A stretch of 64,000 nucleotides of DNA, from IMG/VR virus record IMGVR_UViG_3300020519_000004; one strand, written 5' to 3'. A program made the position numbers and the translations under genes. The DNA is from an uncultured virus (IMG/VR IMGVR_UViG_3300020519_000004). Taxonomy: Duplodnaviria > Heunggongvirae > Uroviricota > Caudoviricetes. How positions within the stretch are numbered: the first letter of the stretch is position 1; each line of letters begins with the position of its first letter. This document shows, piece after piece, positions 2,470 to 58,006 of this stretch. Below the pieces are notes generated by a model, which made no database searches, was not told the DNA's origin, and saw nothing but the letters and a program-made list of their open reading frames with translations.

Positions 2470-2681
2470 GGTGCGATTGTCTCCTGTGTTATTTCTATTG
2501 TTGTTTCGCTTGGATTGAACCCTAGTAAAGTTTCTGTGCATGCGCCATCGACCCTGCATAATGGCGGGTTGCATTCTTCTGCTTCCCAGTTTTCTGGGTC
2601 CTGACAAGAGTATCTGTAATTTCCATCGTATCCACATGCGGATAAAATTAAAATTCCAAATACTAAGACGACTTTCTTCAT
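2466..2681 (-). CDS. Small lipoprotein
   Basis: Signal peptide with lipobox LSAC; ATGA overlaps on both sides. Confidence 0.7.
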   Translation of the reverse strand: MKKVVLVFGILILSACGYDGNYRYSCQDPENWEAEECNPPLCRVDGACTETLLGFNPSETTIEITQETIAP

Positions 2682-2935
2682 TTTGCATCTGCAGCTTTTT
2701 TGGCGCTCTTATCAACACCATTAAATACTTGATTAATCTCAGCTAAAGACAATTTTCCATCATCAAGAAATGCTCTTGATAGACCTTCGACTACTGTGGC
2801 AACTCCAGCAATACCAGCCATAAATATTGCTTTCCAAAGAGGAACTCCAGCAATAGTACCAGCTCCAATTACGCCAAGACCAGAAGCCGCAAAAGTGGCC
2901 ACAATGCGCATTATTATGTTTTTAACCTGCTCCAT
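2678..2935 (-). CDS. Holin-like membrane protein
   Basis: 85 aa, two TM segments, charged C-terminus, SD GGAGG; heads a coupled membrane/lipoprotein trio. Confidence 0.55.
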   Translation of the reverse strand: MEQVKNIIMRIVATFAASGLGVIGAGTIAGVPLWKAIFMAGIAGVATVVEGLSRAFLDDGKLSLAEINQVFNGVDKSAKKAADAK

Positions 2936-2989
2936 ATAATCCCTCCAGATGTGATATTATTAATAGTAACAACATCAAAGGAGCACTCA

Positions 2990-10961: not shown

Positions 10962-11663
10962 TCACCGTCTAGTATTTACCTTTGCCTGTCGCCTGCCTAT
11001 GTCATTTAATTTTGTTTCTCTTGCTATTCGAATTTTTTCTAGTTTTATTTGAGCTTGAGTTCTTGGCGATAAAGATTCAGCTGCAGTTTCTATCACTTCT
11101 TCACCGTAGGCTGCGGCAGAATCAGCTTGCAGTCCCGATAGATATGCTAAAGAATCTTCTCCATATAATCCCGATATACTTACGGGAACTCGCATATCCA
11201 TTTCAATTTCACCAAGAGCGCCACCAAAAATTGAGTCTAGATTTAGTCCACCATAAGCGTTCATATTACTTGGAAGTTTACCTGTTTTTGAATAGTTTTT
11301 TAATATATCTATTCTTCTGGTGAGATCTAAGAATTCTTCAACCCCTTCATCTACTGAGCGAAATTGACCAGTAATTGAATCATCAATACCAAACTGATCT
11401 GGCTGCATACCACCAGGTAAAGTCCAATTTCTCCTAAGTCTACTTTTTTCAGCTTTACTTAAACCTGAAAAGAAGTCCCACTCTCCACCACGTCCACCTC
11501 TATATTTTTCTCCAGATATAGTTGTTTTTGTTTCTAATTTTGGTGGAGGACTAATAAATCCAAGTCCTTTTTCTGCAAATTGATCTTCAAGCGCAGTAGC
11601 TTCTTGGCCAGCACGTTGCCTAATGGCTGCTCTTAATTCATTAAGTTCTTTTTTTGAAGCCAT
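10962..11663 (-). CDS. Hypothetical protein
   Basis: ORF; start refined to MASKKEL after AGGA. Confidence 0.55.
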   Translation of the reverse strand: MASKKELNELRAAIRQRAGQEATALEDQFAEKGLGFISPPPKLETKTTISGEKYRGGRGGEWDFFSGLSKAEKSRLRRNWTLPGGMQPDQFGIDDSITGQFRSVDEGVEEFLDLTRRIDILKNYSKTGKLPSNMNAYGGLNLDSIFGGALGEIEMDMRVPVSISGLYGEDSLAYLSGLQADSAAAYGEEVIETAAESLSPRTQAQIKLEKIRIARETKLNDIGRRQAKVNTRR

Positions 11664-11712
11664 TTTAAATTTCCTAACCGAGTTAATAACATATGCGCAA
11701 GTTCTATATTCT

Positions 11713-11733
11713 ATATAGTAACCGTTACTATAT
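11713..11733. promoter_or_regulatory. Back-to-back TTACTAT motifs (candidate bidirectional late promoter)
   Basis: atagtaa 11715-21 and ttactat 11725-31 between divergent genes. Confidence 0.5.
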
Positions 11734-11738
11734 CCAAT

Positions 11739-12056
11739 ATGAGAGATCCGATTAGACATGGTGGGCTAAATGACCCCGGTATTGTTTCTGGTGGAATTGT
11801 ATCCAGTGGTAATTTTCGTTTAAATAAATTCCAACGCGCAACTGTTTCTGCTCCAAGAGCAAGAGATCCAAGGTTCAGGGGACCTGGTATGCGCCAGGCT
11901 AAAGTTGGAATTAAGGGACTACAGAAGGTCGAATCGGCTGGATTAGGGTCAATAGTGACCCCTCAATCGGTATCTGCAAGAGCTGGCATGAGAGCTAACT
12001 TTAGTTTTCAAAGTCTTAATTTTAACAAGAATCCAAGATACAACCCATATACTTAA
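11739..12056 (+). CDS. Basic hypothetical protein
   Basis: ORF immediately after TTACTAT motif. Confidence 0.55.
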   Translation: MRDPIRHGGLNDPGIVSGGIVSSGNFRLNKFQRATVSAPRARDPRFRGPGMRQAKVGIKGLQKVESAGLGSIVTPQSVSARAGMRANFSFQSLNFNKNPRYNPYT

Positions 12057-19125: not shown

Positions 19126-19310
19126 TAGTATTCAATACCTTTGAGCTTTAATAATTCTTTTTGAAGTTCATTATTCTTATCTCTAAGAGACTTTATCTCA
19201 ACAGCTGCATCATAAAAAAGATTAGCATAAACCATAACTCCATCCTTTTTACCCTTAGCTATTTCAGCTAAAGCAACTAGTGCTTCTAGTATATCATCAT
19301 TTTTTTGCAA
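19125..19310 (-). CDS. Hypothetical coiled-coil protein
   Basis: Coupled ORF. Confidence 0.5.
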   Translation of the reverse strand: MQKNDDILEALVALAEIAKGKKDGVMVYANLFYDAAVEIKSLRDKNNELQKELLKLKGIEY

Positions 19311-19959
19311 CTTTTTTACGCGGCCTTCCTACTGTAGGCTTACCTGCAGAATCAGTTTCCTGTACAAACCAATGATAAGGAAATCCGGTATGTGGATCAA
19401 ATCTTGCTGCAACAGCAATTGCCTTAGTTGCAATTAACTTTGCATGAGCTGTAGTCATTTTCTTTTTACCGACAAGAGCCTGTAATGCACCGAGAGCATA
19501 CGAACTACCACTACCCAATGCATAGATTCCACTAGCATCAGAAGCCCAACTGTAATCACCATCAACTACATAAATAGAACCATGTATGGAAACTAAAATC
19601 ATAGAATCATGTTCGGCAATATGCTTCTTATCTTCGTTGCTGTCCGGCAAAGCGTACCCCTGCTGTTCAAAGCATTCACGTAGTGCGGGAATAAACTTAG
19701 CGGTTATAAACTCATCTAGTTTTTTTCCTCGAAGATTAGGAGGTGGAGTTGGCGGCTGAAAAACGTGATGTAAAATATTGATTGCACGCATATCTCCAGC
19801 GGCTCCTAATAAATACTTACCATTAACAGCAACTTTGCAGTTACCTTCTTTTAAGGTAAAGATTTGAGAGATATATCCAGAATTATCTATATCAGATATT
19901 CGTGAATCCACACACACTGCTGAGAAACCATCGCCCTGAATAGCAATAATAGTTGTCAT
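19297..19959 (-). CDS. Proteasome beta/HslV-like Ntn hydrolase
   Basis: N-terminal MTT, DSR, K...LLGAAGD, ALGSG, D..TG. Confidence 0.85.
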   Translation of the reverse strand: MTTIIAIQGDGFSAVCVDSRISDIDNSGYISQIFTLKEGNCKVAVNGKYLLGAAGDMRAINILHHVFQPPTPPPNLRGKKLDEFITAKFIPALRECFEQQGYALPDSNEDKKHIAEHDSMILVSIHGSIYVVDGDYSWASDASGIYALGSGSSYALGALQALVGKKKMTTAHAKLIATKAIAVAARFDPHTGFPYHWFVQETDSAGKPTVGRPRKKVAKK

Positions 19960-38617: not shown

Positions 38618-38953
38618 TTAAAACAAAGAAACCAATTTAGAACAGGTTTTTAAATTAAGAGTAGATATATCATTATCTAATATTTTTTTAAATATGTAAT
38701 TACGTTCTTCTTCAGTCGTGTTTCCCCAAACACCATGATACTGATAGGTTAATGCACTTTTTAAACAATCAGCATTTACAGAACATTTCTTACATATTAA
38801 TTTGGCTACTGCTATGTCATCTGATTTTGGAGAACCAAAAAAAGTAGATGTAGCTATGCCGGTGCAAGCAGCTTTTTGACGCCATGCATTATCTTCAGAA
38901 TTAAAGATATCAAAATCTTCAATCGACCTGACTCCTATTGGTTTCTTCGCCAT
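38618..38953 (-). CDS. whiB: WhiB-family transcription factor
   Basis: WRQKAAC...FF...AKLICKKCSVNADCL...GVWG.TTEEER. Confidence 0.9.
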   Translation of the reverse strand: MAKKPIGVRSIEDFDIFNSEDNAWRQKAACTGIATSTFFGSPKSDDIAVAKLICKKCSVNADCLKSALTYQYHGVWGNTTEEERNYIFKKILDNDISTLNLKTCSKLVSLF

Positions 38954-39254: not shown

Positions 39255-39330
39255 TAGGGCGGGTGGGGTTTGAACCCACGTGGACCAACTAACCTTTCAA
39301 CACCTTATAAGAGTGAGGGTATACCGCCCC
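39255..39330 (-). ncRNA. Non-canonical tRNA-like RNA lacking D-arm, anticodon-like loop CTTATAA (UAU)
   Basis: 7-bp acceptor GGGGCGG/CCGCCCT, T-arm GTGGG-TTCAAAC-CCCAC, no D stem. Confidence 0.7.
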
Positions 39331-40661: not shown

Positions 40662-40766
40662 TTATTTGTTTTGTTTAATGTCAGCAACTAATACAAGAAA
40701 TAAGCTAACAGCTATTAGACCTACAGGTATTCCAATCACTAACCTAATTATATCAAACCAATTCAT
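40662..40766 (-). CDS. 34-aa single-TM protein (not in ORF track)
   Basis: MNWFDIIRLVIGIPVGLIAVSLFLVLVADIKQNK; GAGG SD. Confidence 0.5.
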   Translation of the reverse strand: MNWFDIIRLVIGIPVGLIAVSLFLVLVADIKQNK

Positions 40767-41082
40767 TGTTAACCTCTAGTTCAAGTGTGGCTTTACGCTT
40801 ACGTTGCAATCTTCTAGCTACATTAATTCCAGCATAACGAGGAAGACTGTATCCAGCAAGGTAACGTTCTTCTTCATTTTCGCCACCCCAAATACCAAAT
40901 TCAGTATTTTCTCTAGCGTAATCTTTACATAAATCTAAAACAGGACAAATAGCACAAAGTGTTTTAGCTCTTTGTTCACGACGATCTCTGGCTTGTGGAC
41001 GCTCAGCATCTTTAGGATAAAACAAATATGAATATCCTTTACAAGCTGCTTGTTGAGACCAAGAACCAATAGATACTCTCAT
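40753..41082 (-). CDS. whiB: WhiB-family transcription factor
   Basis: WSQQAACKG...AKTLCAICPVLDLC...GIWGGENEEER. Confidence 0.92.
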   Translation of the reverse strand: MRVSIGSWSQQAACKGYSYLFYPKDAERPQARDRREQRAKTLCAICPVLDLCKDYARENTEFGIWGGENEEERYLAGYSLPRYAGINVARRLQRKRKATLELEVNNELV

Positions 41083-50905: not shown

Positions 50906-51137
50906 ATATTTTTTCCCAACATTCAGGATGAATGCCAGTCTTAACTAACTCTCTTTGATCTCTACTTAAGTATGGAAAAGCGTCTTGTATAAACTCTCCG
51001 CTTTGCCAAAATGTTAAATCATTTATATTAATTATGATTACATTTTCTTCATTACAATGAATGCAGCTATTACGATAAAAATCTACATCTTTAAAATTAA
51101 GATCATCAGGATTTTCTCGATAATCATAAGCTGGCAT
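50883..51137 (-). CDS. Small Zn-binding phage protein
   Basis: CIHC...IQDAFPYL...RE...TGIHPECW. Confidence 0.65.
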   Translation of the reverse strand: MPAYDYRENPDDLNFKDVDFYRNSCIHCNEENVIIININDLTFWQSGEFIQDAFPYLSRDQRELVKTGIHPECWEKIFESSDEE

Positions 51138-51171
51138 AGTATACCTCATTATTTTAAACTTTGTATGAAAT

Positions 51172-51296
51172 AAAAAAGTAGTGCCGTACATCTACTAAGG
51201 TCGAAAGGGGCGAACTCGACATAACAGTCTGGGGAAAGTTATGGAGCTCGTTAAATCCTTAATAAACGTACGGCACTTATCCTGCTTAGAGGATAG
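51172..51296 (-). ncRNA. 3'-UTR rod-shaped RNA/terminator with anti-SD loops (element B)
   Basis: 21-bp stem 51180-200/51257-77 with 3 minus-strand G.U pairs, two inner stems, U tail. Confidence 0.65.
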
Positions 51297-51302
51297 AGTC
51301 TA

Positions 51303-51656
51303 CTAAGCAGAAAGCATTACCCAAAGTTCAAATGTCTTTGAGCGATCATTGAACATTGAGCGTGAACTAATGTAAAGATTATCTTTACGAGCACGAGCAT
51401 ATAGTGAAGCTATAATAGCTGCCTTTTGCTTTGCATTAGTGATCTGTATATCAACATGTGCCCATTCGTTACGACGAACTGTAAGAGCATTGTAGATATT
51501 AGTAATTATTGGATTGCGCTTGCCACGGCCTACGCCTGCTGGTGGTTCACCTTTAATAAAGGTTACAACCTTGCTTGGCTCTTTAATAGCAAAGCGCTCT
51601 GGATTCTGTTGAACTCTAGTTTCATCACTGATATTGATAGACATGGTAAACTCCAA
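51303..51656 (-). CDS. Hypothetical basic protein
   Basis: ORF. Confidence 0.55.
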   Translation of the reverse strand: MEFTMSINISDETRVQQNPERFAIKEPSKVVTFIKGEPPAGVGRGKRNPIITNIYNALTVRRNEWAHVDIQITNAKQKAAIIASLYARARKDNLYISSRSMFNDRSKTFELWVMLSA

Positions 51657-51693
51657 TTGTATAACGGTTATTTATATGTGGTTTTTTATGTAA

Positions 51694-52443
51694 CTAGAAT
51701 GGCGAATTGTAAACCGGTATAATATTCTTATGATGAGTTTCATATTCGATACCGAATGCTTCATAGTGTGCAACAGCATGCCAATGTGCTAAGAAGATCT
51801 TAACAGCATACCGTTGAGCTTGAGCATCGATCCTTTCTTGTGGAAGTTTTCCAGATAAATAAATATCTTTATCTCTTTGAATAGCTTTATCTTTTGAGCT
51901 AGCAGAGTTTAAAGTATCTTTAGCAAGGTCTGAATATTCGCCTTGCTCATTAAGTTCAATTCGACGCTTGCGTTCTTCTAGATACAACTTACCATAAAAA
52001 CAACTGTCTTTAGCAGAGTATTTAACAAAGTTTTTACCTAAATCAATACAAACTTCTTTTAAGTTATTATTATATGTAAACTTTTGTTTACTTGGTTGGT
52101 TGGGAACCAAACCAGCATAGCTCCATAGATGCTCTGGAGTACGAGATTTAATTATATCAATATAGCTAAGTAAACGAGTAGCTGTAATTGGGCCAACTCC
52201 AAGATTGGAAATTGCCCATTTGCCAGTCATTGAAGAACGGCAAAAAGATTCTAAAGAAGTATCCATTTGGGATTCTAGTTCCAAAATAAGATCTTGGAAA
52301 TACATCAAGGTTTCATCTTGATCAACTAAGTTAGTTAATTCGTTCCGTTGATTGCGAATTTCCCAGTAAACTTTAGATAAGGTTGAAGCTGTTTCTTTAT
52401 TTTTGGTTAGAGGGATAGAAATAAGTCTATCAGTGGTAGTCAT
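51694..52443 (-). CDS. IS110/Nop-domain protein without nuclease domain (TasA-like)
   Basis: Coiled coil, W..LGVGPITA..LL.YID, LWSYAGLVP, FYG..Y, GKLP..RIDAQAQRYAVKIFLAH; no DEDD RuvC N-terminus. Confidence 0.65.
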   Translation of the reverse strand: MTTTDRLISIPLTKNKETASTLSKVYWEIRNQRNELTNLVDQDETLMYFQDLILELESQMDTSLESFCRSSMTGKWAISNLGVGPITATRLLSYIDIIKSRTPEHLWSYAGLVPNQPSKQKFTYNNNLKEVCIDLGKNFVKYSAKDSCFYGKLYLEERKRRIELNEQGEYSDLAKDTLNSASSKDKAIQRDKDIYLSGKLPQERIDAQAQRYAVKIFLAHWHAVAHYEAFGIEYETHHKNIIPVYNSPF

Positions 52444-52499
52444 AAAGGTAGTTTCTATTAGTAGGTATGATGCATTTACTTTGTATGAAAATAAAAGTA

Positions 52500-52579
52500 A
52501 ATATTAAAATGGGTAGTAGACAGGTTAGTTTAACTGGATTGATTTATGACGAAAAACCCTAGTTACTGTCTACTACCCA
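52500..52579 (-). ncRNA. 3'-UTR hairpin/terminator with anti-AUG loop (element C)
   Basis: Perfect 14-bp stem 52510-23/52566-79, inner stem, loop UUUCGUCAUAAAUC. Confidence 0.55.
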
Positions 52580-52586
52580 AACTTAA

Positions 52587-53189
52587 TTAATCAGATGCTT
52601 TGCACCTATGTGCAAATTCTGGTCCCCATGCGCATGGGTCCCAAGGATCCCAACCAGCTTTCTGGTACAACAAAAGGCCTGCTCTGAGATTATTAACAGG
52701 ATCTAAAAGTTGTTCTTGTTTACAGAACTTTAACTCTAAACAAACGAGAGCATTTTTATTTCTCTCTCTATTATAGTTAACTCCATTGATTTGTAATAAT
52801 CCTGAATCGGATTTGTTTGTTGCTTTAGTATAGCCAGTAATATTGCAGTTTTTATCTACAATAGAACTACCAATACGGTTTGGGCATCCGCCTGATTCAC
52901 GTAGGATAATTTGTCCTAGTTTTTTCCAGGTATGCTTTGGCCAACCAACTGCACCAGCTAATTCTGGAAGCCATGATATATCACCATGTTTCCATTCAAC
53001 TGTTTGAGTTGGCAAAGTTGTAGCTAACTTAGTCATGCGATCACCAGTAAGAGCTATTTGCTCCATGGTCATTGGCAGGGTAGAATCAGCTGATTCAGCC
53101 AAGACTACTCGGCCTGTTAATCCAAGCACTAAGTAAATTCCTATAATATAGGAAAGTATTTTATTTCTTTTTGTTTTAATTATATTCAT
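52587..53189 (-). CDS. Secreted lytic transglycosylase/lysozyme-like protein
   Basis: N-terminal TM; RESGG, DSGLLQIN, DPVNNL..G, W.PW. Confidence 0.8.
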   Translation of the reverse strand: MNIIKTKRNKILSYIIGIYLVLGLTGRVVLAESADSTLPMTMEQIALTGDRMTKLATTLPTQTVEWKHGDISWLPELAGAVGWPKHTWKKLGQIILRESGGCPNRIGSSIVDKNCNITGYTKATNKSDSGLLQINGVNYNRERNKNALVCLELKFCKQEQLLDPVNNLRAGLLLYQKAGWDPWDPCAWGPEFAHRCKASD

Positions 53190-53437
53190 TTTCGTTTGTT
53201 CACTTTCGTTTTGGTTTGCGAAACAATTTCATTTCGCATTAGTATAACTTGGGTGTTCAACCGAAGATTGTGCTAGACAATTACGATATGTCCTTCACAG
53301 TGGCAGGTTAGCCATCTCCGACTTCACAGTATAACTGTTATGTTAGGGATTATTCCCTGCCCGCTGTCAAACGGGCATGTAATAAGTATAGCATATTTGA
53401 GATGCATACTATTGTATTCAGTTATAGTCCTCCTGAT

Positions 53438-53560
53438 TAACGGCTAAACTTAAACAAAAGACTCCATAATCCTAAAACAACAAAGTAAAATTTACTATGT
53501 AGTTAGCTTGCCTATAACAAGGCAAGTTAGAATCATGGAGTCGTTAAGTTCAAACCGTTA
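53438..53560 (-). ncRNA. Long 3'-UTR multi-stem RNA (element F)
   Basis: Three stacked stems (8, 8, 16 bp) with minus-strand G.U plus inner 7-bp hairpin. Confidence 0.5.
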
Positions 53561-53785
53561 TTAGATAGTACTATCTGAATTTAAAAACAGCTGCTTTTCA
53601 GCTGCATTAATTTTAAAAAGACCACGACTCACAGTTGTGAAACGTGATGGATTTTTACGGATGTATAGGTACACAGTTTGCACTGTGCAGTTTAATAAAT
53701 TGGCAATATCCATCGGTTTAAATTCTTGACCGATTCTATCGTCAATGTACTTGTCTATTAACAATGACTTGCTTGGGGTTCTCAT
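53561..53785 (-). CDS. Small HTH DNA-binding protein
   Basis: DIANLLNCTVQTVYLYI; AAGGAG SD. Confidence 0.6.
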   Translation of the reverse strand: MRTPSKSLLIDKYIDDRIGQEFKPMDIANLLNCTVQTVYLYIRKNPSRFTTVSRGLFKINAAEKQLFLNSDSTI

Positions 53786-53985
53786 TGTATGTTTCTCCTT
53801 GCCATATTGGCATTGGTGTTGGTTAATTAACATATATAAAGTGATATAAATAGAAAGGCTATTATGATAACTTTCGACTTAAATCGTTAATTATTATAAC
53901 ATACTCATTACAAATCATATATACAATATAGACATTTTTTTCTAAAAGGTATATAAATTTGGGCATCTAACATTTTTGCATGAGA

Positions 53986-54297
53986 TTATTGTGAATATAG
54001 ATCATCTTGGTAATACCTTGGAAATTGTACATTTTTAATTTTAAGAATTTCCTGATAGTATAAATGCAAAGTTTGCCAAGATAAAATATACTTGTGGAGA
54101 ACATTGTCAAGACTCTTGAGTTGTTCTTCAGGTGAAAGTTGAAAGTCAACTGAATGAACTATGGTACTGACTTCAGCCATACTACTTTCTAAGTTTGAAA
54201 TAGCTTGATAAAATTCAGCTTGAGCTGTCATGTAGAATTTAGTCCTACCTTCTTCTGTATTAAAATTAAATTTAGAAGGTTCGAGTGGAGAATCCAT
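53986..54297 (-). CDS. Hypothetical protein
   Basis: AAGGA SD. Confidence 0.55.
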   Translation of the reverse strand: MDSPLEPSKFNFNTEEGRTKFYMTAQAEFYQAISNLESSMAEVSTIVHSVDFQLSPEEQLKSLDNVLHKYILSWQTLHLYYQEILKIKNVQFPRYYQDDLYSQ

Positions 54298-54315
54298 TTA
54301 AGTTCCTTTAATATA

Positions 54316-54506
54316 AAGAAAAAACTTGATGGCTTTGAAGTCCCTAGAGTAAAAATTAAAGCGCTAATCGGAAAAGCGCCAATGTCATTCGGGGGGTAAA
54401 CCAATGACATTTAATGAGCTTCTGGAGGGACTATATGGCTCACTTTTTAATTACCCTAGAGACATCAAAACCATCAAGCTATTGATGATACTGATATTTT
54501 ATATGT
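54316..54506 (-). ncRNA. Cloverleaf antisense sRNA (element D) with three seed loops
   Basis: 28-bp closing stem (3 G.U only on minus strand), three hairpins, U tail, own promoter; loop 1 complementary to 2932-2949. Confidence 0.8.
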
Positions 54507-54512
54507 GTTTTA

Positions 54513-54541
54513 ATTGTACTAGCTAAAATTGGGTAAGTCAA
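54513..54541 (-). promoter_or_regulatory. Sigma-A/70-type promoter TTGACT-N17-TACAAT
   Basis: -35 at 54536-41, -10 at 54513-18, 17-nt spacer. Confidence 0.8.
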
Positions 54542-54542
54542 A

Positions 54543-54558
54543 TGTTCCACGTGGAACA
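54543..54558. promoter_or_regulatory. parS: parS centromere-like palindrome TGTTCCACGTGGAACA
   Basis: Perfect 16-bp match to the chromosomal parS consensus, extends to an 18-bp palindrome; intergenic. Confidence 0.8.
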
Positions 54559-54785
54559 TATTTATTTTTGTAAGGTTTAAGTAAATATAAAGTATAAAAT
54601 TAAATACCAGCAAAGACTATGCTTTTTATGCACAGCCTAAATATGTCTGATCAAAGTCATACGATAGTAATTTTAAACGTTCAGCAGGACGCTCGTTCGT
54701 AATCTCCTTACACTGTTCACTGAATGTTTTCTGCTTCAGTCCCTAAGGCAAACGATTCCATCATATACTTTATATTTAAAGTAAC

Positions 54786-54836
54786 AAAAAAAAATATGGG
54801 GGCCCAGTATCACCGAAGTGACACCAGACCCCCATA
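54786..54836 (-). terminator. Intrinsic terminator
   Basis: 19-bp stem, UUCG tetraloop, 9-U tail. Confidence 0.9.
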
Positions 54837-54839
54837 AGG

Positions 54840-57341
54840 TTAACTTGCTTTAGCTGAGCTAAATGTTATTGGACTAAGCTTTCCACAATAACGCTGATAA
54901 TCCAAAGGATCATCAAAGCTATGGTGTGTTCCAGCATCGTCAATAACTTCCCACTGTTGAGTGCGAACTTGATTGATAGTGATAGTTCCGTCATCATTAT
55001 GACTAGCAGTTATACGAGTAGCAATACCATAGAATTGAAGCGCACGCTCCAAATATGGAAAGACTAATCGGTTCATAACAAGCTGGTCAGTAATCTTGCC
55101 ACTGGAAGTCTTATGCTTCAAAGAAGCAGAATACAAACCAAGAACAAGATCATGACGATCACTTTCACACTCATAAGAATCAATCTTATCGACAATAGTT
55201 TGATACAGGTTATCCCAACCTGAACGATCCACATGTCCTCCGTGTTCAGAGGTCATCTGGCTATTGACATTATAGATTTCCATACGGAATTTACGCAAGA
55301 CTGGCAACGCATGAAAGCTCATACGATAACCAATCTTATCTATAAATTCAGATGGACGAGCATTCTCTTGAGCCCAAGTGTGTACACGCTTAGCATATGC
55401 AAGATAATAGCTCTTGCATAGATCATTGAGCTGAGTAATAACACCTTCGTATTTCTCAACCCATTCGCCCTTCTTAAGATAACCATCGAAACGACGGCTA
55501 TCCCAAAGAGCACGATCTACAGGAAGACCAGACTGAATAACTTGACGCACCATAGTAGTTGCGTCTTCGTCAATACAGTCACGATCATCGGCTATAGCAG
55601 TTTGAATAAATCCGTCAATAGCATCCTCGAGACTGCAAAGTTGCTGTTCTCGATGAGTGCCAAAGACAGATGAATGTAACATAGAAGCGTTGACGAAACG
55701 ACCAACGCTGCCAGTAGCCATAGATGTACGGATGTCAGTTAAGACATCCTCACGAGTATACACTTCGCCAGTACGCTTAGGCGGGGGATTGATTTGACTA
55801 GGCAAACCAATGTAGCTAACTTGTTCTTCAGCCAAAGCTTCAGACAAACGCTGTACCCAACCACGCCCAGATACTTTAGGAAATGTAATCTTCTCACCTG
55901 TAGAAGTAAGCCAATGCGGATGCCAGGCTCCTTCTACATATTCAAAGATTGAATACTCACCAATTCCGTTTGGTGAACGGGCAACGATTACAGACTTGTG
56001 ACCGTCAAGATCTCCGCCTTCAAACTCACGATAAAAGAGTTTAAAGAAGTCGTCTTGATCACAGCCACCATGAGATGCATACATCTCAATCCAGTCTAGA
56101 TCGTTTACTACGTGAACTTCGAGTTCACTTAGGCGTTGAATAGTTCCTTGTTCAACTTCAATTTCATAACCAGCCATCCGAGCCAAAGACTCTGAGATGA
56201 TCTGTTCATAAACAGCACAAGGTATAGGAATTTTAGATTTCAACGGCTTAGCATGACTAGTAGCCAGCGTCTCAAACATCCACGGGGATTCAGTTACCTT
56301 CATTCCCATAGCAACCCAACGATAACCCACATATTGCATGCGGGCTTGGGCTTCCTCGTCTTCAGGATCAACCTTATCCTTCCAAGTACGCTGATAGATG
56401 TTCTTCCAATTGCTCAATAGCTTGCCATTGAGCGCTTCTTGAAACATCTTTTCGTACTCTTCGGAAAGCCAATATTCCATTTCGCTTTTAGTAAAAAGCT
56501 GTGGAAGATTGATCATAGTTTGATCATCTGTGTGAACACGAGATTTAGCATTTTGTGGTTCTGCTTGGAACATCCAACCTTCGTCATAAACAATTTCTGA
56601 TTTAAGATTGCCGTGCCAAGAAAGCACGTCAACCCCTTCAGGAAGTTTATCCGAAACAAAGCAATTGCCTTTAAGAAAGCCATCAGGGCCGATAATACGA
56701 CCATTGAAAGCTTTAGTATTAAGCAAGTCTTTGATAGCATTTTGACGCATACGAGGATTGTAATAATACTCGTTAGGATCATTAGTTGATCCAGCTTCAA
56801 ATGCAGGTAAGTTGTCTACGCCGGCTTTAATCAGCCGAGGATGAATTACAAACCCACCATCAAGAAGTCTGTCTACTTCTTCCTCAGTGAACTCTTGGCC
56901 TTCAAACGCATAACGACTAAACTCGTCAGCGTCAGCGTATTGAACAAAGATTTCACCAAGTGCAAAGACTGCATTGATAAGAGTAGGTCGGTGAAACGCT
57001 TTCAACCGCTTAGCAGTTTTACCGCCACCTTTAACCTTAAAGCCCATATCTGTAAAGATAGATAACCACTCAGTGTTGTTGCCAACCTGAGTGATTACAA
57101 TCTTAGTCTTATCCACCAAAGCATATTGAATGCTTGGGTGATTGATGATAGCTTGAATTTGATTAAATTCGAATTCGTTCTTGGGCAGTGGAAGAGCCCC
57201 AACACGAAAGTAATCTTCTCCAGAATGGGTAAGAGCTTGGCGCATAGCACCAATCTCATAGAACCCATACTGATAGTTATTAACGCTACGAAGCGGGCCA
57301 TTGGAATATCCAACAGCCCGCATTTTTGGTGTGATTGGCAT
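54840..57341 (-). CDS. Candidate single-chain two-barrel RNA polymerase (RdRP/YonO-like)
   Basis: LKG, GGCDQDD, ARSP, VGRFVN, EDAIDG motifs reminiscent of cellular RdRP; 833 aa; strong SD. Confidence 0.45.
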   Translation of the reverse strand: MPITPKMRAVGYSNGPLRSVNNYQYGFYEIGAMRQALTHSGEDYFRVGALPLPKNEFEFNQIQAIINHPSIQYALVDKTKIVITQVGNNTEWLSIFTDMGFKVKGGGKTAKRLKAFHRPTLINAVFALGEIFVQYADADEFSRYAFEGQEFTEEEVDRLLDGGFVIHPRLIKAGVDNLPAFEAGSTNDPNEYYYNPRMRQNAIKDLLNTKAFNGRIIGPDGFLKGNCFVSDKLPEGVDVLSWHGNLKSEIVYDEGWMFQAEPQNAKSRVHTDDQTMINLPQLFTKSEMEYWLSEEYEKMFQEALNGKLLSNWKNIYQRTWKDKVDPEDEEAQARMQYVGYRWVAMGMKVTESPWMFETLATSHAKPLKSKIPIPCAVYEQIISESLARMAGYEIEVEQGTIQRLSELEVHVVNDLDWIEMYASHGGCDQDDFFKLFYREFEGGDLDGHKSVIVARSPNGIGEYSIFEYVEGAWHPHWLTSTGEKITFPKVSGRGWVQRLSEALAEEQVSYIGLPSQINPPPKRTGEVYTREDVLTDIRTSMATGSVGRFVNASMLHSSVFGTHREQQLCSLEDAIDGFIQTAIADDRDCIDEDATTMVRQVIQSGLPVDRALWDSRRFDGYLKKGEWVEKYEGVITQLNDLCKSYYLAYAKRVHTWAQENARPSEFIDKIGYRMSFHALPVLRKFRMEIYNVNSQMTSEHGGHVDRSGWDNLYQTIVDKIDSYECESDRHDLVLGLYSASLKHKTSSGKITDQLVMNRLVFPYLERALQFYGIATRITASHNDDGTITINQVRTQQWEVIDDAGTHHSFDDPLDYQRYCGKLSPITFSSAKAS

Positions 57342-57385
57342 GCGCCCCTCCTGATCTTTCCGATTGATATTGTTTACAATTGTTA

Positions 57386-57874
57386 TTACGGTGTTGCTGT
57401 ACGTGCACGCTTAGCTTCCACATAAGCGTTGTATTTAATAATATAAGGTCGAATAAATTTGAATACAGCATTTAGAATTCTAACTGGAATAGTTATAACT
57501 CTAAAGATTGTATAGATTAATTGATTGAATTCACCAAGCACTTTGCGCCATTTGGCCCAATGTACATGGAAGTTCTTCCAATAATAAACAGTACGGTTTC
57601 CACCTTGAGTCCTAGCTGTAGGTGTATCGTGGTTCCAACGAAGGAACTGATAACCAGGAACAGATAAGATTGTTGATATGACGCCGGCACCCATGGCAAC
57701 TAGACCATTGGCTCCGAACGCTATACCCATAACAAACGAAATTACTAATGAATTAAGTAAGTTAAATAGTGGACTCTTTGCACTTAGTTTGCGCCAAGCT
57801 GGAATTTTAGAAGCAATCATGAGCTCGAGAGCACATGAAGTTACCGCTAGAATAAGCATCATTGACAATAGCAT
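57386..57874 (-). CDS. Multi-TM membrane protein
   Basis: Three hydrophobic helices; start refined. Confidence 0.6.
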   Translation of the reverse strand: MLLSMMLILAVTSCALELMIASKIPAWRKLSAKSPLFNLLNSLVISFVMGIAFGANGLVAMGAGVISTILSVPGYQFLRWNHDTPTARTQGGNRTVYYWKNFHVHWAKWRKVLGEFNQLIYTIFRVITIPVRILNAVFKFIRPYIIKYNAYVEAKRARTATP

Positions 57875-57935
57875 TTTATACCCCAATCATTGCTAGTCTT
57901 TGTATGAATAAAAAAATATTTATATTAATATAATA

Positions 57936-57994
57936 CTACAATGGGTTAGAGACACACGCGTCAGGAGTGCGTGTATCCCTAACCCAAGATTGTA
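57936..57994 (-). terminator. Long terminator hairpin with anti-SD loop ACUCCUGAC
   Basis: 18-bp stem 57942-59/57969-86 with G.U. Confidence 0.7.
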
Positions 57995-58006
57995 ATTAGT
58001 TAAAAC

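Follow-up and report, generated by a model that had tools for sequence, protein, structure and literature searches.

What kind of element lies between the 833-aa and 103-aa genes of this uncultivated freshwater phage, and on which genes does it act? A sequence-only reading of the window, as we call the whole 64,000-nt stretch of DNA analysed here, had proposed that the minus strand encodes a cloverleaf-shaped small RNA whose first loop masks the start of a holin-like gene, and that the RNA thereby serves as an antiholin. We find that the element is a genuine RNA-level structure on the minus strand, a conclusion on which covariation, an asymmetry of G.U pairs and a promoter of its own agree. 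This RNA probably turns down the translation of two phage genes through C-rich loops predicted to match their ribosome-binding sites, and we put at roughly one in two the probability that it is a multi-target, translation-blocking phage sRNA akin to 6C and RNAIII, a reading built on predicted pairings.

Results

A structured RNA behind its own promoter

On the minus strand a TTGACT-N17-TACAAT promoter is followed by a long closing stem that encloses three hairpins and then by a U-tract, and the positions that the sequence-only reading had given for these parts were correct (Table 1). The promoter is the top-scoring site within 51000-58000. Its hexamers read TTGACT, TTGACA or TTGATT and TACAAT, TATAAT or TAAACT in 10 aligned homologues, and are not kept in a distant copy of the RNA found in viral record G007. 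The preceding gene, which encodes the 833-aa protein (54840-57341, minus strand), carries its own strong terminator at 54836-54795, and the parS-like palindrome (54559-54542) lies about 235 nt beyond that terminator in the minus-strand direction.

Table 1. Positions in the window of the RNA, its parts, its predicted targets and its neighbours
Feature	Position	Strand	Description
Predicted target 1: start region of holin-like gene (2678-2935), UCUGGAGGGAUUAUAUGG	2932..2949	-	18/18 pairing with loop 1
249-aa TIGR-associated (Tas) protein gene	51694..52443	-	NF052498, 118.2 bits (cut-off 100)
103-aa gene	53986..54297	-	start 19 nt past U-tract; always beside RNA
Structured RNA	54316..54506	-	about 191 nt, predicted start to end of U-tract
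U-tract UUUUUUCUU	54316..54322	-	directly after closing stem
Closing stem, 3' arm	54323..54352	-	followed by U-tract
Hairpin 3	54360..54380	-	loop UUUUCCGAUUA, complementary to AAUCGGAAA box of 833-aa gene start region
Hairpin 2	54381..54411	-	loop UUUACCCCCC, six consecutive C
Hairpin 1	54413..54444	-	18-nt loop (54420-54437): CCCUCC anti-SD core and CCAUA anti-start-codon stretch
Closing stem (about 30 bp), 5' arm	54451..54480	-	pairs with 54352-54323
Unpaired 5' tail	26 nt, from 54506	-	
Sigma-70-type promoter	54513..54541	-	TTGACT (54541-54536), 17-nt spacer, TACAAT (54518-54513); 10/12 consensus matches
parS-like palindrome ATGTTCCACGTGGAACAT	54542..54559	none	perfect, 18 bp; directly adjoins -35 hexamer
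Predicted target 2: 833-aa gene start region, AAUCGGAAA-GAUCA-GGAGGGGCGC-AUG	57339..57365	-	in top three for all three loops

The RNA (54506-54316) has a minimum free energy of -66.8 kcal/mol, compared with a mean of -34.4 kcal/mol (sd 4.2) for its shuffles (z = -7.74; 0 of 200 as stable). Counted by hand, the 28-bp stem of the sequence-only reading comprises 24 Watson-Crick pairs, three G.U pairs and one U.U mismatch, and its statement that three of the four imperfections are G.U is upheld. Loop 1 has the sequence CCAUAUAGUCCCUCCAGA, and at 18 nt it is larger than the loops of hairpins 2 and 3, which measure about 10 and about 9 nt. The closing stem ahead of the U-tract is unusually long and branched for an intrinsic terminator; the tract itself holds six U in the window, four in homologue L006, where it is weak, and eight in G007. 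Eight metatranscriptome runs shared a few sequence words with the window, and the contigs of four of them (X1, X4, X5 and X8, from four studies), compared as contigs only, cover 53900-54158 and 54776-54900 and not 54172-54545.

Homologues were recovered by several routes. One, L006, was found via the neighbouring 833-aa protein; its RNA is 75% identical to that of the window and folds with z = -8.11. A scan of metagenome contigs for the loop motif returned 21 matches, comprising eight true homologues (74-94% identical) and 13 chance matches (L142 among them), and G001 is a near-identical viral record. A covariance model built from 10 sequences retrieved the distant copy in the 267-kb record G007 (43.4 bits, E 7e-9). 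Because the scan pattern behind the eight homologues required both loops 2 and 3, the invariance of these two loops is partly built in; only L006 and G007 were recovered independently of the loop pattern, and G007 lacks hairpins 2 and 3. Four loci considered as further RNA copies (L116, L145, L289 and L290) gave weak matches that look like chance, no RNA was found in G005, G006 or G010-G016, and by covariance model the window holds a single copy.

The RNA had no family match in Rfam, searched with the whole window at the gathering score and with 54150-54700 at E up to 10, the yield being tRNAs and chance-level matches only. GenBank phages held no DNA or protein match, and IMG/VR, searched with two loop patterns and the 103-aa protein, gave nothing beyond two known contigs.

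Selection on RNA structure, for which the sequence-only reading had argued from the G.U pairs of a single stem, is confirmed by the homologous loci. Pairing holds in 98.1% of the 527 cells of the 10-sequence alignment, and both sides have changed in 14 of the 53 pairs; not one of 500 shuffles matched the cells paired, the both-side changes or the covariation score, and sliding the partners by 1-3 columns lowered pairing to 30-42%, with 0-3 both-side-changed pairs. All four helices take part in the covariation, the closing stem with 29 pairs (10 changed on both sides; 98.6% of cells pair). This covariation shows the fold to be a four-way junction, composed of a closing stem of about 30 bp and three hairpins.

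Many of the variant pairs are G.U on the minus strand, and the covariance model of the RNA gives 191.9 bits for that strand against 60.1 for the plus strand; the structure is therefore RNA read from the minus strand, and not DNA. A cruciform, an inverted-end transposon, or a replication or partition site linked to parS would also place long inverted repeats beside a parS-like site, and it would suit the finding that the parS-like site, the RNA and the 103-aa gene are present or absent as one unit. However, in a DNA-level element of this kind the stem imperfections would not be expected to be G.U on one strand only and A.C on the other, the inner hairpins covary too, and the window contains no further copies. 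Together with the strand scores (192 versus 60 bits), these observations render a DNA-level element very improbable.

Conserved loops and the leader of the 103-aa gene

The loops had been likened to the C-rich anti-SD sequences of the RNAIII/RsaE type, and this description holds: CCCUCC is found in loop 1 and CCCCCC in loop 2. All 11 homologues, the distant G007 among them, keep the CCCUCC of loop 1 unchanged. Over its whole length, loop 1 is identical to that of the window in three of the nine other aligned homologues (L143, L139 and L128) and is changed inside the 18-nt stretch in six, which read ..CCAAAA (L126, L141), ..GCCCCUCCAACAA (L130), CCAUAAAUACCCUCCCAA (L132) or CCAUAGUCCCUCCGACAA (L006, L129). 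Across the aligned variants CCAUA and CCCUCC alone persist.

That the best-conserved letters lie in apical loops, and not in junctions or alternative pairings, bears on whether the element acts purely in cis, as a 5' leader, attenuator or RNase III site for the cluster that runs from the 103-aa and HTH genes to tas, with no targets in trans. Part of that idea is built into the locus, since the 103-aa gene, 19 nt past the U-tract, has no promoter of its own and the RNA must therefore double as its leader. The gene, whose product is modelled as a plain two-helix hairpin (pLDDT 74), accompanies the RNA in every homologue, G007 included. A duplex of about 30 bp is moreover a classical RNase III substrate, and neighbouring intergenic regions also contain conserved long-stem structures. 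Yet no alternative antiterminator fold was seen, complementarity between the loops and the RBS of the 103-aa gene extends to 4 bp at most by hand reading, and the loops fit two other start regions better than expected by chance. We regard a purely cis-acting element as possible, with the odds clearly against it, and favor the reading in which the RNA also acts in trans on those two start regions.

The start region of the 833-aa gene

Of the 99 start regions, that of the 833-aa gene alone ranks in the top three for every loop, with duplex energies of -18.3 kcal/mol for loop 1, -13.9 for loop 2 and -11.6 for loop 3. The sequence AATCGGAAA occurs twice in the 64 kb, once in this start region and once, as the complement, in loop 3; the 9-mer match is not significant alone, at least two sites being given by 12 of 100 shuffles. 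Comparison among lineages adds to the picture. The AAUCGGAAA box stands 4-5 nt 5' of the SD in 8 of 8 RNA-bearing lineages with a visible start region, while its flanks diverge, and its variants include an 11-bp match to loop 3 in L006 and a duplication in L130. The box is absent in RNA-less relatives (L009-L015) and in G007, whose RNA lacks hairpin 3. Because presence and absence follow one clade, the joint distribution of box and RNA represents few independent events.

Loop 1 appears to change along with the SD of the 833-aa gene. In L130 the loop GCCCCUCC is perfectly complementary to GGAGGGGC in the SD region of this gene, in L132 the SD of this gene has an extra G (GGGAGGG) and loop 1 an extra C (CCCUCCC), and in G007 the loop CCCUCCUUA pairs over 9 bp with UAAGGAGGG of the neighbour gene. 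The order of the sites fits antiparallel two-site binding, with the box 5' and the SD 3' on the mRNA, and loop 1 5' and loop 3 3' on the RNA. Of the two predicted targets, the 833-aa gene is better conserved than the holin-like gene.

What the 833-aa protein might do is suggested by remote similarity. It had no match in Pfam, NCBIfam, PHROGs, PDB sequences, a PDB profile search or GenBank phages, and of its 227 homologues none of the 120 listed has any name but 'hypothetical protein'. The family has an invariant HGGxDxDD motif, and a language-model look-alike search with residues 330-620 placed 28 of 30 named matches in PF05183 (RdRP) clusters, at a score of 0.92. Single-chain phage polymerases related to the PF05183-type fold have been described, YonO for example (PMC5467207). 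The 833-aa protein is possibly an RdRP-like RNA polymerase, which we offer as a lead and not as a finding.

The holin-like gene

The pairing at the heart of the sequence-only reading was borne out: loop 1 and the start region of the holin-like gene pair at 18 of 18 positions with one G.U, across both SD and AUG. When no more than one G.U was allowed, a helix of at least 18 bp turned up in 1 of 250 dinucleotide-shuffled versions of the RNA, and in 6 of 250 stretches of 191 nt drawn at random from the window; with unlimited G.U, 18-bp helices are common within 64 kb (67 of 300 shuffles, 88 of 300 random pieces). At -33.1 kcal/mol this site leads the 99 start regions by 13 kcal/mol, the next being at -19.7 (mean -8.6, sd 4.2), and GGAGGGAYTAT occurs in the window solely in the holin-like start region and the loop. 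Because of the shuffles at no more than one G.U, the duplex energy and the unique GGAGGGAYTAT, we conclude that the match is more than a trivial anti-SD/SD coincidence. An 18-bp helix could form within a closed 18-nt loop only if the loop were strained or the 7-bp stem melted.

Relatives of the holin-like gene are present in 80 loci. The closest, L031 and L036, keep UCUGGAGGGAUU(U/G)UAUGG, and a larger group has the start region ACAGGAGGGAUUAUAUGG. The change in L036 would still pair with loop 1 as G.U, and that in L031 would give a U.U mismatch. Neither BLAST nor the covariance model found the RNA in the long contigs of the larger group, among them G013, which is 97% complete; the holin-like start regions of G012 and G013 share GGAGGGAUUAUAUGG. 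G002 ends before the holin-like gene and the L143 contig is about 10 kb too short to reach it; apart from the window, G007 alone combines the RNA with the holin-like gene. There loop 1 (ACUUACCCUCCUUA) and the holin-like start (AAUGAUGAGGAUUAAAUG) share a generic SD match only, and loop 1 has no other site within 3 mismatches across the 267 kb.

Conservation of the pairing between loop 1 and the holin RBS is not supported in these relatives. The antiholin proposal, in which the RNA keeps a holin-lipoprotein-membrane cassette off until late, survives in two of its parts: the RNA is real, and the 18-bp match is unusual, being the strongest predicted interaction in the window. Early expression, which we infer from the promoter type alone, would suit such a role, as would the sequence kept in the two closest holin relatives. 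Beside these points stand the altered flanks of loop 1 in six of nine homologues, the two RNA-less records with the shared start region, the unpaired G007 and the mismatch in L031. The holin label of the gene itself (2678..2935) is also weak, as its PHROG match to a holin (phrog_443, E 8e-8) is surpassed by one to phrog_26427, labelled 'nuclease' (E 3e-23). On balance a dedicated antiholin is unlikely, and we favor a model in which the holin-like gene would be a lineage-specific extra target of a broader regulator, a prediction that is unproven.

The parS-like site, the Tas gene and TIGR arrays

With two WhiB genes and a proteasome-like gene, the window points to a probable actinobacterial host. 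The palindrome at the promoter fits the chromosomal parS consensus, as the consensus string is given in a ParB review; all 9 RNA-bearing loci carry it, and none of the 9 loci of RNA-less relatives does. If bound, ParB would sit on the -35 of the RNA promoter. Downstream, the order RNA, 103-aa gene, HTH gene, lytic-transglycosylase-like gene, tas, 117-aa gene, 102-aa gene and S8 protease gene is conserved in every sufficiently long relative.

The tas gene raises a further possibility, that the RNA is a guide or cofactor of the neighbouring Tas protein, a single stem-loop unit that stands in for a TIGR array and brings Tas to DNA. The gene lies 1.9 kb downstream of the RNA, in a synteny seen in seven loci. 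RNA-less relatives carry dual-repeat TIGR arrays (period 37; 6-22 units) beside the same 833-aa gene, and neither the window nor the RNA-bearing loci contain a dual-repeat array in a periodic-repeat scan that found 15 units in the control L010. Because RNA and array are distributed in this complementary manner, we retain the idea at a low probability. It gains something from Tas itself, which in array lineages has a 7-residue insertion containing Y/H that is missing from the Tas of RNA lineages, and from a CUU that all 10 clade members have at the foot of the closing stem, a preprint on TIGR systems having described processing at CUU at stem bases.

The architecture of the RNA nevertheless speaks against such a guide. 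Loops of 18, about 10 and about 9 nt are too short for two 8-12-nt spacers with box C/D, no repeated box pair was found in the RNA, and there are no tandem units. Both complementarities are contiguous and directed to one (mRNA-sense) strand, whereas tigRNAs are described as requiring pairing split over two DNA strands (PMC12045711). The loops are conserved where a guide should vary, and G007 lacks the CUU and, as assembled, has both module types. A fuller version of the same idea, in which the array has been replaced by elaborate single RNAs (the cloverleaf and perhaps two more conserved structured RNAs of the cluster) that serve an array-less, TasA-like protein without the Y/H processing loop, would make the RNA a bridge-RNA-like guide to the phage's own polymerase-like and holin-like genes. 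We consider it a long shot; if true, it would amount to a self-directed RNA-guided transcriptional switch instead of an antisense RNA.

Two further observations concern the TIGR-related sequences. A hairpin upstream of tas (about 52520-52590), considered as a tigRNA, was rejected, as in relatives it resembles a terminator with a variable loop. When the array spacers of G005 were compared with the loci studied here, the 8-nt cores gave mostly chance matches; L011 has a related array.

Discussion

Altogether we favor the view that the phage encodes a regulatory RNA of about 165-190 nt that blocks translation in trans. Host RNA polymerase would transcribe it from the sigma-70-type promoter that abuts the parS-like site. 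Some transcripts probably end at the closing stem and U-tract, RNase III may cut the stem as well, and transcripts that read through would supply the 103-aa/HTH gene cluster downstream. The conserved hairpin loops would act as seeds that pair with SD and start regions and block ribosome binding, by analogy with 6C and RNAIII/RsaE. In this scheme the 833-aa mRNA would be held at two sites, by loop 3 on the AAUCGGAAA box and by loop 1 on the SD (GGAGGGG), and pairing of loop 1 with 18 nt from SD to AUG would add the holin-like gene to the regulon in the lineage of the window.

To our knowledge few phage-encoded trans-acting sRNAs have been described, and none in phages that infect freshwater Actinobacteria. 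The RNA reported here comes from an uncultivated freshwater phage, is supported by covariation and fits no described Rfam family, and it has concrete, testable candidate targets in the 833-aa gene, which possibly encodes an RdRP-like RNA polymerase, and the holin-like gene. Were these targets confirmed, the phage's own transcription machinery, and possibly lysis, would be under the control of an RNA that the host transcribes. The setting raises two more questions: why the promoter of the RNA carries a host-type parS site, and what serves as guide to a Tas protein lacking an array.

How does this RNA compare with known systems? The stem-loop tigRNAs of TIGR systems and the bridge RNAs of IS110 resemble it as guide-like structured RNAs with an extended stem, and the proximity of tas, the CUU at the stem base and the array-less lineage add to the likeness. 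Unlike them, the phage RNA has neither dual spacers flanked by box C/D nor tandem units, and its complementarity is to one strand. Leader- or terminator-derived sRNAs and the RNase III stems of phage early transcripts share with it a promoter-proximal position, a stem and U-tract before a gene and a long perfect duplex, but such RNAs normally lack a set of three covarying hairpins whose conserved loops match the starts of other genes.

A closer parallel in its loops is the 6C sRNA of Actinobacteria (Rfam 6C; B11 of M. tuberculosis), whose C-rich loops bind the G-rich RBS regions of several mRNAs and which is described as repressing without a chaperone (PMC6486639). Both RNAs have hairpins with C-rich loops, with six C in loop 2 of the phage RNA, and the likely host phylum is the same. 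The covariance model of 6C nevertheless gave no match to the phage RNA, even at E up to 10, and the latter is virus-encoded, much more AU-rich and built with a closing stem of about 30 bp, three hairpins and a loop 3 seed that is not C-rich.

RNAIII of S. aureus and RsaE/RoxS likewise differ from the phage RNA in phylum, size and architecture; the phage RNA has no Rfam match to them and is encoded by a virus. The likeness is in the mode of recognition. In these RNAs, loops of the UCCC or CCC type pair with SD regions, as the C-rich loops of the phage RNA are predicted to do, and in RNAIII two loops can hold one mRNA (rot, coa), which is how loops 1 and 3 would hold that of the 833-aa gene.

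Modules flanking the 833-aa gene

The promoter of the predicted ~191-nt structured RNA (54316-54506, minus strand), which lies beside the 833-aa gene, is abutted by a parS-like perfect palindrome that is present at all nine loci carrying the RNA, versus none of nine loci from relatives that lack it. The same pattern occurs in more than 135 stretches of viral contigs, some of which carry multiple copies. Across the 64-kb window no TIGR array was detected, and the window encodes a 249-aa TIGR-Tas protein that has the size of a Nop domain, without a nuclease part. Dual-repeat TIGR arrays are found in the RNA-less relatives directly upstream of the 833-aa gene homologue, with a period of 37, 6-22 units, the edge repeat AATGAATCA and the loop repeat AGTAACA, and several spacers are common to loci L011 and L010. 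G007 (loci L011, L023, L026, L144 and L287), a 267-kb viral record with a distant copy of the RNA, combines a TIGR array with the parS-RNA module, and in it the 833-aa gene and the holin-like gene are each present in two diverged copies. Chimeric assembly may account for this record, or it may be a genuine double genome.

Features of the window and of related loci
Feature	Position	Strand	Remark
parS-like perfect palindrome	54542-54559		Abuts -35 of the RNA's promoter; fits chromosomal parS (ParB-binding) consensus
833-aa protein gene	54840-57341	-	Conserved within this phage group
103-aa protein gene	53986-54297	-	Invariably follows the RNA
372-nt intergenic region	53189-53561	-	HTH gene/transglycosylase-like gene
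TIGR-Tas protein gene, 249 aa	51694-52443	-	Passes NCBIfam TIGR-Tas RNA-guided effector cut-off, 118 bits
Second element, same design as the RNA	about 51180-51300	-	Between 117-aa and 102-aa genes
Motif TTCATACAAAG	51159-51169, 52479-52489, 57898-57908	-
TTACTAT(A) motif	2962-2970	-	Upstream of holin-like gene
265-aa gene	10962-11759	-	Loop 3 match in start region
Two WhiB-family genes	38618-38953, 40753-41082	-
Proteasome-subunit-like gene	19297-19959	-
Six tRNA genes (Gly, Arg, Thr, Asn, Leu, Met)	within 21716-42939	-
TIGR arrays, RNA-less relatives	L010:3372-3895; L011:183-967; L012:3180-3372; L285:1154-1349

Further structured elements and promoter-like motifs

The 372-nt intergenic region is nearly invariant across lineages whose proteins diverge by 15-45%. 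Its predicted fold is strong, at -110 kcal/mol by alifold, and no Rfam family matches it; it is probably a further structured RNA, outside the known families. It contains ACUGUGAAG twice, together with an SD-like AGGAGGACUAUA that is near-complementary to loop 1 of the RNA, the hairpin loop with the CCCUCC anti-SD core. The second element has a closing stem of ~20 bp, inner hairpins with C-rich loops (UUUCCCCAGA and GCCCCUUU) and then a U-tract, and is kept, with variation, in five relatives. Loop 3, the hairpin loop matching the start region of the 833-aa gene, has a further 9-bp match (CUAAUCGGA) directly past the start codon of the 265-aa gene. The 103-aa protein is a predicted two-helix hairpin (pLDDT 74) with no family match.

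TTCATACAAAG is probably a phage-specific promoter element. Copies immediately precede the 102-aa gene, tas and a two-gene unit whose last gene encodes the 833-aa protein, and with at most one mismatch the motif has 9 matches versus 3.1 expected, a count reached in 0 of 100 shuffles. Another type of phage promoter may be represented by TTACTAT(A), which both the window and many relatives (loci L033-L055) carry 20-30 nt before the SD of the holin-like gene; if so, this gene would have a very short 5' UTR.

Host and the 833-aa protein

Because the window encodes two WhiB-family proteins and a proteasome-subunit-like protein, its gene content points to an actinobacterial host, despite a G+C content of about 34%. 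A candidate seventh tRNA (39255-39330) scores exactly at the gathering score.

For the 833-aa protein 227 homologues were found, and every name among the 120 listed is "hypothetical protein". An HGGxDxDD motif is invariant in the family, and when residues 330-620 are compared by language model, most of the look-alikes belong to RdRP (PF05183) clusters. This protein may thus be an RNA polymerase of the single-chain, two-barrel type.
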